Virus record (IMG/VR): IMGVR_UViG_2802429250_000001
DNA: 5,820 nucleotides
Origin: a virus
Taxonomy: Duplodnaviria; Heunggongvirae; Uroviricota; Caudoviricetes
Direction: 5' to 3' (one strand)
Part shown: positions 2,400 to 5,820 of the stretch, one piece after another
Layout: the number at the start of each line of letters is the position of its first letter
Numbering within the stretch: position 1 is the stretch's first letter
Made by a program: the position numbers and the translations under genes
Notes under the pieces: generated by a model
The model's input: only the letters and a program-made list of their open reading frames with translations
Databases searched by the model: none
What the model was told of the DNA's origin: nothing

Positions 2400-2690
2400 A
2401 TGAAAAGGAAAAATTCTGGCTTTACTGCCAGCGGTCTCTCTCGGCCTGAAATCAGACACGGAGATATTTACCGCGACACCAGACGTGGGGGACGAGTGGT
2501 TATTCGTCACGTTACGCCAGGCAATATCACCTACCGCCGTGAGGCTTACGAATATGACTGCGTAATGCCGCGCCGTCAGTTTGAGCGTGATTTTATTCTG
2601 GTTGAAAACAAACAACAGGCAGTGGCAAGACGTGCAGCCACGAATATTAAAAAAATCCGGGCAATGTTGGTTGCGGGAGGTAAGAAGTGA
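2400..2690 (+). CDS. Hypothetical basic (Arg/Lys-rich) protein, ORF6 (96 aa), translationally coupled to the replication gene
   Basis: ATG 2400-2402 with AGGAA (2386-2390) upstream; stop TGA 2688-2690 overlaps the GTG start of the next gene (GTGA). The translated product is visibly rich in Arg and Lys. Confidence 0.55.
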   Translation: MKRKNSGFTASGLSRPEIRHGDIYRDTRRGGRVVIRHVTPGNITYRREAYEYDCVMPRRQFERDFILVENKQQAVARRAATNIKKIRAMLVAGGKK

Positions 2691-4486
2691 AAAACGCACC
2701 GAATTTAAAATATCAGCCGAAGGATAAATTCACCGAGGTAATCATTTTTGCCGGGACGGATGCTTACGCCCATGCTCAACACTGGATTGAAAGCGAAGGA
2801 CGAAAACACGGCGATAACGTGCCTCCTGTTTACCTGGGGCCAAAGCAACTGGCAGACCTGGCGAATATCCGCATTGTCGACGATGAACGCCGCTTTGCGC
2901 GTGTCTATCTCGCGGGGGAGATAGAGCCAATCCAGATCAATGCTATTGCTGAAAAGCTGGCGCTGGCTGGTGTACAGGACGCGAAATTATACAAAGGTAT
3001 CACCGACCGGGAGCCGGAAAACTGGCGCGACTACCTGCAACGGATCCGCGAACAGGCAGAGAGTGGGGAAGTTTCAGCGATGAAATTAGCCACAAAAAAT
3101 ATTGACCTATCTAGGCCAGCACTAAATCAGATGGGAGCCAGCCAGAGAGGGGAAGTGTTACTTGAATATTATGGAAGAGCACTGGCTATAAATGATGATT
3201 CTGATGTAGTTCACCATTACAACGGAATTGTCTGGGTGCCTGTATCTGATAAGGAACTCCAGCGGGCTATGGCGCAGATTTTTATTGATGCGGAAATCAG
3301 CTATTCGCAGAACGCCATCAAATCGGCGGTCGATACCATGAAGTTAAGTTTGCCCGTAATGGGGAATACAGCCCGTAACCTGATTGGATTCAGTAACGGG
3401 GTATTTGATACCAGAACTGGTAATTTTCGGGAGCATAACAAAAACGACTGGTTGTTAATTGCCAGTGAATTACCTTTCAGCCCACCAGCAGAGGGGGAAA
3501 CGCTGGCAACACATGCGCCGAATTTCTGGAAGTGGTTGCGCCGTTCGGTGGCTGAGAATGACCGCAAGGCAGATCGCGTACTGGCGGCGTTATTCATGGT
3601 GCTGGCGAATCGGTACGACTGGCAGTTATTTCTTGAGGTAACGGGGCCGGGTGGAAGCGGTAAAAGCGTAATGGCGGAGATTTGCACTATGCTGGCGGGT
3701 AAGGCCAACACGGTATCGGCAAGCATGAAGGCGCTGGAAGATGCCAGGGAACGTGCGTTAGTGGTTGGCTTTTCGCTGATTATCATGCCGGATATGACCC
3801 GTTACGCTGGTGATGGTGCAGGGATTAAGGCCATTACAGGCGGTGATAAGGTGGCAATCGACCCGAAACATAAAGCCCCCTACTCAACACGCATTCAGGC
3901 GGTCGTGCTGGCGGTGAACAATAACGCCATGTCATTCAGTGACCGCAGCGGTGGGATATCACGTCGTCGGGTAATATTCAATTTTTCGGAAGTTGTACCG
4001 GAGAACGAACGTGACCCTATGCTGGCTGAAAAAATAGAAGGAGAGCTGGCGGTAGTGATTCGCCACCTGCTTACACGCTTTTCTGACCAGGACGAAGCTA
4101 AACGCCTGCTATATGAGCAGCAGAAATCAGAAGAAGCCCTGGTGATAAAACGCGAGGGCGATTCGCTGGTGGACTTCTGCGGCTATCTCATGTCGTCGGT
4201 AATGTGCGATGGCCTGTTAGTGGGTAATGCTGAAATTATTCCGTTCAGCCCGCGCAGGTATCTCTATCACGCCTATCTGGCGTATATGAGGGCACACGGA
4301 TTCGGTAAGCCCGTAACACTGACACGCTTCGGTAAGGATATGCCAGGGGCAATGGCGGAATACGGCAGGGAGTATATGAAACGGAAAACGAAGCATGGCT
4401 TGCGTTCAAACGTGATACTGACAGAGGATTCAGAAGACTGGATGCCCTCATGTGCATCGGTCACAAATGACGATGGCAAAAATTAA
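2687..4486 (+). CDS. Replication initiator/helicase, phage P4 alpha family (D5_N-like region + SF3 helicase P-loop + C-terminal region), 599 aa
   Basis: GTG start 2687-2689 with GGGAGG (2675-2680) at 6-nt spacing. Walker A GPGGSGKS at aa 320-327 (nt 3644-3667); Walker B-like SLIIMPD; SF3 motif C-like VLAVNNN; D5_N-like stretch GFSNGVFDTRTGNFREH. Iterons of the P4 alpha-binding type lie immediately downstream. Confidence 0.85.
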   Translation: MKNAPNLKYQPKDKFTEVIIFAGTDAYAHAQHWIESEGRKHGDNVPPVYLGPKQLADLANIRIVDDERRFARVYLAGEIEPIQINAIAEKLALAGVQDAKLYKGITDREPENWRDYLQRIREQAESGEVSAMKLATKNIDLSRPALNQMGASQRGEVLLEYYGRALAINDDSDVVHHYNGIVWVPVSDKELQRAMAQIFIDAEISYSQNAIKSAVDTMKLSLPVMGNTARNLIGFSNGVFDTRTGNFREHNKNDWLLIASELPFSPPAEGETLATHAPNFWKWLRRSVAENDRKADRVLAALFMVLANRYDWQLFLEVTGPGGSGKSVMAEICTMLAGKANTVSASMKALEDARERALVVGFSLIIMPDMTRYAGDGAGIKAITGGDKVAIDPKHKAPYSTRIQAVVLAVNNNAMSFSDRSGGISRRRVIFNFSEVVPENERDPMLAEKIEGELAVVIRHLLTRFSDQDEAKRLLYEQQKSEEALVIKREGDSLVDFCGYLMSSVMCDGLLVGNAEIIPFSPRRYLYHAYLAYMRAHGFGKPVTLTRFGKDMPGAMAEYGREYMKRKTKHGLRSNVILTEDSEDWMPSCASVTNDDGKN

Positions 4487-4500
4487 ACTTATGGAATAAC

Positions 4501-4654
4501 TGTTCATCAAACTATTCACTGTTCACCTTTTTGATTATTTGTTGAGCTTTAAGGGTGAACAGTGGTGAACAGTTGGTGAATAGTTTTTGTGAAACTGTTC
4601 ACCCCTTAACACAATGAATTAAAAGGAGAAACGGAAAAGGTGAACAGGTGAAGG
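4501..4654. repeat. Iteron cluster, P4 ori/crr type: about 8 copies of TGTTCACC / GGTGAACA in both orientations
   Basis: TGTTCATC 4501-4508; TGTTCACC 4520-4527 and 4596-4603; GGTGAACA 4554-4561, 4564-4571 and 4639-4646; GGTGAATA 4575-4582; GGTGAAGG 4647-4654. The three copies at 4554-4582 are spaced 10-11 bp apart. Confidence 0.75.
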
Positions 4655-4741: not shown

Positions 4742-4942
4742 TTGACAGAACACAGGCTGAGGGGGGCGATAAAAATTATCGACCGCAACGCCGGGGAAGG
4801 ATACGCGAAAGTACATCCCGAACTGATAAGCGCATTCATGACAACGGCAGCGGCAAACTTTGCCACGCTGACAGAACGGGAGATTGCCGAAGCTGAACAG
4901 GTGACAATCATCAACGTTAAAACCGGAGAGCAAACAGCATGA
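4742..4942 (+). CDS. Hypothetical small protein or decayed gene fragment (no canonical start)
   Basis: The track ORF starts at TTG 4742 with no Shine-Dalgarno; the internal ATG 4838 also lacks one. The frame is open from 4703. Translation (GAIKIIDRNAGEGYAKVHPELISAF...) looks protein-like, but start support is poor. Confidence 0.25.
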   Translation: MTEHRLRGAIKIIDRNAGEGYAKVHPELISAFMTTAAANFATLTEREIAEAEQVTIINVKTGEQTA

Positions 4943-5157
4943 CGGTACAAATATCCGCTTACGGGCGGCAGGTGGCTGATCTGCACTCAAAAACCACCAG
5001 CAAGGGAACACCAATGGCAATGGCGAGTATGGCAGTTCCCCTTCCGCGCAGCCAGGCAGATGACGGAACGGCGAAACGTGGCTGGTCTGGTTATCGCAGA
5101 CAGCGTAATCAGTGCGCGAACGGTGCGGCTGGGCGGCAAAAAAGGCCAGCAGAGTGA
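4939..5157 (+). CDS. Hypothetical small basic protein (72 aa)
   Basis: ATG 4939-4941 preceded by GGAGAG (4926-4931) at 7-nt spacing; overlaps the upstream ORF stop (ATGA). Product is low-complexity and basic, so it may be a gene remnant. Confidence 0.35.
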   Translation: MTVQISAYGRQVADLHSKTTSKGTPMAMASMAVPLPRSQADDGTAKRGWSGYRRQRNQCANGAAGRQKRPAE

Positions 5158-5234
5158 TCCGTACGGTGATGGAATACCATTTGGGGATATCGTATAAATA
5201 AACCTTAGCATAGCGTTATATAAAGGTGATATAT

Positions 5235-5561
5235 ATGATTTACTTTGTGAAGAAATTTAGTGAAATAGTGGAAAAGTCTTCTGGTGCTTTGTCTTTCGGG
5301 ATTATACAGAGTCTCGTTATGATAGGTATAATTGCAAATTTATCTTCTCAAACAGGTGTAAGGTATTTCATCTTGCTTACTATTGCATTTATTGCAACTA
5401 TAAGTATTGCATTATGTATGTTGAGTATAATATCTGTTATTAACGAAGTGACAGGAAAACATAAGTACATGAAGTTTTTGTTTGGGATTCTGCTGTACCC
5501 TTCTTTTATTGGTGTTATTCTTTCTGCGTACCTGAGTATTAAAGCACTAATAGTCAGTTAA
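5235..5561 (+). CDS. Small integral membrane protein (about 108 aa, three predicted transmembrane helices) in an AT-rich islet
   Basis: ATG 5235-5237 with AAAGGTGA (5222-5229) upstream, preferred over the track's GTG 5226. Three hydrophobic stretches: GALSFGIIQSLVMIGIIANL, VRYFILLTIAFIATISIALCMLSIISVI, FLFGILLYPSFIGVILSAYLSI. A 50-nt sample counted 30% G+C against about 50% for the rest of the window. TATAAA at 5193-5198 is a candidate -10. Confidence 0.6.
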   Translation: MIYFVKKFSEIVEKSSGALSFGIIQSLVMIGIIANLSSQTGVRYFILLTIAFIATISIALCMLSIISVINEVTGKHKYMKFLFGILLYPSFIGVILSAYLSIKALIVS

Positions 5562-5587
5562 TTATCTGGGTAATAAGCAATAAAGAA

Positions 5588-5601
5588 ATTTCTATAGAAA
5601 T
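5588..5601. repeat. Perfect 14-bp palindrome ATTTCTATAGAAAT
   Basis: Read directly; it lies between the membrane-protein stop (5559-5561) and the next + strand start (5641). Confidence 0.3.
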
Positions 5602-5640
5602 AAGCCATCAAAAGGAACGACGATAATACGGATAATATCG

Positions 5641-5820
5641 ATGAAAAGTACACATGGAAAAGCTGACCATCAACAGAAATTACGGTATGCCACAAAAATG
5701 GTACAGGAGACGCAACAGCAGGATAAAACCACATCGGCATATAAAGTGATGCCCGGTAATCAGAACGCGCAGCAGAAGCCCACAGGGGCGACACCGTGGC
5801 GGCATATGACCAAACGCCAG
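5641..5820 (+). CDS. 5' part of a hypothetical gene that runs off the right edge of the window
   Basis: The frame is open from 5584 to the window end. First ATG at 5641 (MKSTHGKADHQQKLRYATKMVQETQQQDKTTSAYKVMPGNQNAQQKPTGATPWRHMTKRQ...); alternative ATGs at 5698 and 5749. Absent from the ORF track because it has no stop in the window. Shine-Dalgarno is weak. Confidence 0.35.
   Translation, partial: MKSTHGKADHQQKLRYATKMVQETQQQDKTTSAYKVMPGNQNAQQKPTGATPWRHMTKRQ

Follow-up and report, generated by a model that had tools for sequence, protein, structure and literature searches.

The DNA analysed here (the window, a single stretch of 5,820 nucleotides) matches an E. coli phage-satellite island integrated at thrW and adjoining proA. 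The genes of the thrW island are int, an HTH regulator, AntA, YlcI/YnfO, an Icd-like gene, several small ORFs, DUF4222, a replication initiator, ProQ/FinO and PerC, and a MarR/Vat island follows. The window holds only part of this island, and its wider context was read from the closest complete relative (L001, at thrW), which has no phage structural or lysis genes in the island context. The context was that of a phage-inducible chromosomal island (PICI), with integration at a tRNA/attB site, int, AlpA/HTH and a rightward operon ending in pri-rep. A PICI with the same locus and gene content, EcCIMP1, has been published (PMC11773190). The features of the initiator region are listed in Table 1.

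Table 1. Features of the initiator gene, its upstream neighbour and the putative origin (positions are those of the window)
Feature	Position	Strand	Remarks
DUF4222 ORF	2400..2690	+	PF13973, E 1.4e-19; stop overlaps initiator start
PICI Pri-Rep-type replication initiator gene	2687..4486	+	599 aa; helicase and origin binder of the alpha kind that lacks the alpha primase
N-terminal module, aa 1-125	2687..3061	+	Portable alpha/beta domain; Toprim-like predicted fold, without conserved acidic catalytic residues
Flexible linker, aa 126-142	3062..3112	+	Coincides with the recombination junction between module and helicase cassette
D5_N domain, aa 156-285	3152..3541	+	PF08706, E 1.5e-12; aligns to P4 alpha 336-467
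SF3 helicase ATPase core (DUF5906), aa 319-427	3641..3967	+	PF19263, E 6.3e-11; 50% identity to P4 alpha
C-terminal origin-binding winged helix (Pox_D5 / P4 alpha origin-binding domain), ~aa 490-587	4154..4447	+	PF03288, E 7.6e-13
Putative ori	4499..4650		Eight TGTTCACC-type iterons (4501-4646), in both orientations, around AT-rich spacers

The initiator gene starts with a GTG codon preceded by GGGAGG, and this codon shares bases with the DUF4222 stop (GTGA); translational coupling of the two genes is likely. The ORF cannot be extended further 5' because an in-frame TAA lies 6 nt (two codons) upstream of the GTG, and the start at 2687 is supported by the conservation of the N-terminal peptide MKNAPN in homologues of the initiator. 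A scan for promoters and terminators around the gene found no excess over shuffled sequence. The protein has a single Walker A box (GPGGSGKS, aa 320-327, nt 3644-3667). At its C-terminus the Pox_D5 Pfam match spans aa 490-585, and aa 491-587 match the crystal structure of the P4 origin-binding domain (PDB 1ka8, E 1.6e-23).

A close known relative of this architecture is the alpha protein of P4 (NP_042036), which combines primase, helicase and origin-binding functions. A preliminary description of the window had presented P4 alpha as a protein of about 777 aa with an N-terminal primase marked by EGYATA, and this agrees with the P4 record: the protein is 777 aa long, with a primase Zn-ribbon at residues 30-66 and a Toprim_3 domain at residues 210-299 that contains EGYATA at 214-219. 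The initiator is 178 aa shorter. BLASTP aligned initiator residues 141-594 with P4 alpha residues 322-776 at 50% identity over 455 aa with one gap, and D5_N, the SF3 helicase and the C-terminal winged helix are common to the two proteins. In the same comparison Walker A lies at residue 320 in the initiator and at residue 501 in P4 alpha, and is thus 181 residues more N-terminal, as the preliminary description had supposed. The helicase and origin-recognition half of P4 alpha is therefore intact in the initiator. Residues 1-321 of P4 alpha, on the other hand, have no counterpart, and in their place the initiator carries a distinct conserved module of 125 aa and a linker.

Translation of the ORF confirmed a length of 599 aa and the lack of any EGYATA or EGY-type motif: the EGY tripeptide occurs nowhere in the initiator, nor does CxxC, and there is no Cys in residues 1-140. 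The domain search that had been proposed for the N-terminal region was run with Pfam and NCBIfam on residues 1-318 at E<=10, and the single model returned was D5_N; Toprim, AEP/PrimPol and Zn-ribbon models were all missing. The primase zinc ribbon model PF08273, which accounts for the Zn-ribbon of P4 alpha, had no match in the initiator at the same threshold, and an AEP catalytic domain was not matched in aa 1-318 by Pfam, NCBIfam or PHROG. A diverged equivalent of EGYATA was also sought. In lax Pfam scans the Toprim HMM gave not even a weak match to the initiator or to 23 diverse module sequences, and profile-profile comparison (hhalign) of the module region with a P4-type Toprim alignment gave a probability of 0.1-0.2%; a diverged EGYATA/Toprim was accordingly rejected at the level of sequence. 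The initiator thus lacks the primase of P4 alpha, both Zn-ribbon and Toprim domain. Among the features of a P4 alpha-type primase-helicase, both of those that define the primase were lacking and the helicase, origin-binding and iteron features were all present. The P4 genes sid, psu and delta were absent from the element within the region examined. The proposal that the protein is a helicase and origin binder without primase activity holds in so far as the canonical primase is missing and the helicase, the origin-binding domain and the TGTTCACC iterons are present, but the protein is not simply a short alpha, since its N-terminal part has been replaced by the 125-aa module.

The module (residues 1-125) corresponds to PHROG 2850, which is annotated as of "unknown function". 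A module profile identified 128 clusters among 1.84 billion representative proteins, and in every full-length member found the module was located at the extreme N-terminus. A search of 5426 complete E. coli genomes detected module DNA in 206 of them, and the module also occurs in distant taxa. Among E. coli copies it is under strong purifying selection (pN/pS = 0.07-0.15, with the IMT5155 allele, which has an indel and is out of register, left out).

An AlphaFold model of the module, built on a 23-sequence alignment, had a pLDDT of 91.5 and a pTM of 0.86 and consisted of four beta-strands alternating with helices. The module fold was unchanged in a model of the full-length initiator (pLDDT 83.6), in which the linker (residues 126-142) had a pLDDT of <50. 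Foldseek found nothing significant for the module in the PDB, and the best match of the module profile among all PDB sequences (Cas2, E 0.14) was at the level of noise. In a viral structure library, DnaG/TOPRIM-annotated proteins ranked second and fourth, with a weak likeness. The top structural match (BFVD A0A6J5LID1; Foldseek E 3.4e-4, TM 0.62/0.69) is a stand-alone, uncharacterised protein of 112 aa from an uncultured Caudovirales phage, and the module fold may also exist as a free-standing phage protein.

The preliminary description had held that a confident primase fold in residues 1-300 would count against a protein without primase. The predicted fold comes near to this, in that its closest matches, though weak, are the DnaG-type Toprim domains (Aquifex DnaG, B. 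subtilis DnaG and the T7 gp4 primase fragment), yet the catalytic Glu and the DxD of these domains are absent. At the end of strand 1, the site of the Toprim catalytic Glu (hhhEG), the module family has Ala, Val or Ile at position 22 followed by an invariant Gly (IIFAG in the initiator versus IAEG in P4); the equivalence of Ala22 with the Toprim Glu is set by position in the secondary structure and not by residue-level superposition. After strand 3, the site of the Toprim DxD, a nearly invariant Gly (G77) is followed by variable residues and no DxD. Conservation of acidic residues throughout the family is limited to E17 and E111. The module further lacks the zinc-binding domain and the flanking catalytic subdomains that go with DnaG-type Toprim, and similarity to these domains was not detectable in sequence. 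The model can be read as a Toprim-like, possibly Toprim-derived, domain that would have lost its metal-binding catalytic set.

Five of the iterons in the putative ori are exact copies of TGTTCACC and three have one mismatch, with the first located 15 nt past the initiator stop. In the whole window TGTTCACC occurs 14 times at <=1 mismatch, compared with 4.9 +/- 2.2 expected, and none of 200 shuffles reached 14. In P4 the same octamer forms the type 1 repeats of ori and crr. The arrangement is also alike, with an iteron cluster immediately downstream of the initiator gene in each case (crr after P4 alpha, the putative ori here). P4 has both ori and crr, whereas the related island has one iteron cluster; a second, P4 ori-like cluster was not found elsewhere in it. 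The location immediately 3' of the initiator agrees with the described position of PICI ori, as does the organisation, in which sets of iterons flank AT-rich DNA (PMC6092414).

The prototype E. coli PICI, EcCICFT073, has the same island gene order, with DUF4222 upstream of the initiator and ori immediately 3' of it. Its Pri-Rep (WP_000761835; L005:36242-37993) is collinear with the initiator, including the module, with 43% identity over aa 1-586, and has the same Pfam architecture, likewise without a primase domain. It differs in a CTGTCTACC-type iteron and a more diverged C-terminal domain, and the initiator as a whole has less identity to the CFT073 protein (43%) than its helicase/origin-binding part has to P4 alpha (50%). 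Judged by its sequence, the initiator has every testable feature of a Gram-negative PICI Pri-Rep. Fillol-Salom et al. 2018 reported that a temperature-sensitive plasmid carrying EcCICFT073 rep and ori was maintained in helper-free DH5alpha, that plasmid maintenance was abolished or reduced when rep or ori was deleted, and that the pair was functional with rep expressed alone from an arabinose promoter (PMC6092414); these results are for a 43%-identical homologue and are compatible with host priming and self-priming alike.

These data bear on the source of primers, for which the host, the helper and the upstream ORFs had all been put forward. The neighbouring ORFs in the window are 66-127 aa in length and have no known function except for DUF4222, an Icd-like repressor-family match and a remnant of a single-stranded DNA-binding protein (SSB). 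No primase was found among the window ORFs upstream or downstream of the initiator, nor was a primase ORF found in three distant elements carrying the module. Because plasmid replication was helper-free and no upstream ORF is primase-like, neither the helper phage nor any upstream ORF is a likely source. Of the original suggestions this leaves the host, to which an unrecognised activity of the initiator itself has to be added.

The module is not confined to one class of helicase. In 25 full-length members its partners were D5_N/SF3 helicases (13) and DUF927-type proteins (10), together with one each of a VapE-like protein, an AAA_25 (RepA-like) protein and a Parvo_NS1-like ATPase, and the module has thus passed between no fewer than five unrelated helicase/ATPase families. 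A DUF927-type gene (E. coli O104:H4 C227-11) and a RepA-type gene (WGI31CT) each share 90-100% nucleotide identity with nt 1-360 of the initiator gene; beyond ~nt 375 their identity to it is random, and megablast matches to the initiator gene stop at nt 375-387. The iterons that lie downstream differ from one helicase type to the next: TGTTCACC, CGGGATA-type or AAAGTGAGG-type and, in CFT073, CTGTCTACC. The separate iterons of each type and the junction at ~nt 375 indicate that helicase and ori swap as one cassette, and the module stays with the island backbone while helicase and ori are exchanged by recombination. As helicase and ori are swapped behind a constant module, what the module does should be independent of the class of helicase and of origin specificity. 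Repeated 9-mers were also observed after the alternative cassettes, namely CATATCCCG/CGGGATA after the DUF927-type cassette (L010, 5634-6118), AAAGTGAGG after the RepA-type cassette (L011, 4914-5598) and CTGTCTACC after the D5-type cassette of CFT073 (L005, 37997-38284). These are presumably the cognate ori iterons, and would amount to a natural series of initiator-origin pairs that were swapped behind a shared module.

The initiator is probably the Pri-Rep of an EcCIMP1/EcCICFT073-like PICI that has no DnaG- or AEP-type primase of its own, relies on primers made by the host and carries the module as a non-catalytic accessory domain. Under this scheme the winged helix would bind the TGTTCACC iterons and the SF3 ring, a hexamer, would melt and unwind the AT-rich spacers. 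Primase activity of the DnaG or AEP type would be missing from the initiator, and the host would supply the primers, most probably from DnaG, either by direct recruitment or by loading of the restart primosome on the unwound origin. The most speculative step concerns the module, which on its disordered tether would act as a non-catalytic accessory domain and may bind ssDNA or recruit a partner from the host or the island. Possible analogues are the surfaces by which SF3 initiators of eukaryotic viruses recruit primase and the inactivated primase-like domain of metazoan Twinkle. Metazoan Twinkle retains an N-terminal primase-like domain that is inactive; the likeness is one of function, with no demonstrable homology, as the helicase is SF4 in Twinkle and SF3 in the initiator.

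Other explanations for the module were weighed against this one. A regulatory or sensor role, in which a Rossmann-like ligand- or protein-binding domain allows the DUF4222 product or a helper-phage protein to switch the helicase, is unlikely. DUF4222 does precede the module in every E. coli match listed that includes the gene start, but it was not seen beside distant members of the module family, and in WGI31CT the module is 90-100% identical although the DUF4222 gene has only ~25% nucleotide identity (ungapped comparison). The arabinose-driven EcCICFT073 rep, which works with ori in the absence of other island genes, also argues against a switch of this kind, and no ligand-binding motif was identified in the module. 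It is improbable, too, that the module is a cryptic minimal primase, that is, a highly diverged Toprim with non-canonical residues (e.g. E17 and E111, both nearly invariant) whose template binding is supplied by D5_N or the helicase ring, which would make the initiator a true primase-helicase like P4 alpha. Such a primase would account for the position of the module in the primase slot of five helicase families, for its strong conservation under purifying selection and for the lack of any other primase in these elements, and the self-sufficiency of the EcCICFT073 rep-ori unit in E. coli is in keeping with it. Unconventional primases exist, and the best fold matches are to Toprim domains of DnaG-type primases, yet these are the very domains whose catalytic Glu and DxD the module lacks. 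The idea that decay of a P4 alpha gene has left a truncated, non-functional remnant with a junk N-terminus draws on the shorter protein, the missing primase and decay among neighbours (the SSB remnant, and frameshifts in related islands), but is effectively refuted by the confident fold, the low pN/pS and the experimentally functional, collinear EcCICFT073 homologue, and it fits poorly with an intact ORF with a good ribosome-binding site and with a module present in 206 E. coli genomes and distant taxa.

In genome pipelines and in papers on satellites the gene routinely goes by the name of "DNA primase" or "primase-replicase", and for the initiator the "DNA primase" label is probably wrong. 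The Pri-Rep family is already known and partly characterised, and the useful part of the present analysis is the likely mis-annotation together with the portable module in the primase slot. Neither the missing primase domain nor the N-terminal module is mentioned in the PICI Pri-Rep papers searched, and nothing relevant on DUF4222, EGYATA or primase-less SF3 satellite initiators was found in the literature searched. The label matters as satellite-detection schemes use the initiator gene as a core marker. If it is wrong, a widespread enterobacterial class of PICI needs another source of primers in its replication model, and the module becomes an obvious candidate for a link to the host replisome. 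A more tentative suggestion is that the module is an unrecognised, portable priming adaptor of satellites, either a new minimal primase or a recruiter of DnaG that serves helicases of different families and, judging by those families, of opposite polarity. This is doubtful at present, but if true it would explain how islands replicate with a "primase" gene that has no primase domain. For the CFT073 homologue, a plasmid assay with rep and ori is already available. The initiator genes also provide a clean case of domain-level cassette exchange, in which helicase and ori are swapped and the module is kept.

Several minor observations were made on the remainder of the window. A role in a defence system was considered and rejected, with no PADLOC match for the initiator or DUF4222. 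Downstream of the putative ori, a 72-aa ORF (4939-5157, +) has a weak match to single-stranded DNA-binding proteins (phrog_44, E 7e-6); an intact SSB of 136 aa is found at the same relative position in EcCICFT073 (L005, 38539-38949), and the annotation of the IMT5155 copy records a frameshift. The ORF appears to be what is left of an SSB gene and, if so, would bear on how the island replisome is assembled. From 5001 to 5820 the GC content is 0.34-0.41, compared with ~0.5 elsewhere, and related islands match the window there only in pieces. This stretch includes a hydrophobic ORF of 111 aa (5226-5561) with no Pfam or PHROG match, which is probably a separately acquired accessory gene. Upstream of DUF4222 (1394-2395, +) there are paralogous pairs of small ORFs: those at 1394-1618 and 1969-2202 match phrog_2512, those at 1593-1976 and 2195-2395 both match phrog_340, and the stop/start junction CAGGAGGTGnAnCATGnnTAA is repeated at 1381-1401 and 1598-1618. 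This suggests that the small ORFs arose by tandem duplication of a two-gene unit. Finally, an ORF of 456 aa (31-1401, +) overlaps a minus-strand gene of the YlcI/YnfO family (543-887) and the region of the Icd-like gene, as annotated in related islands, and is almost certainly spurious.
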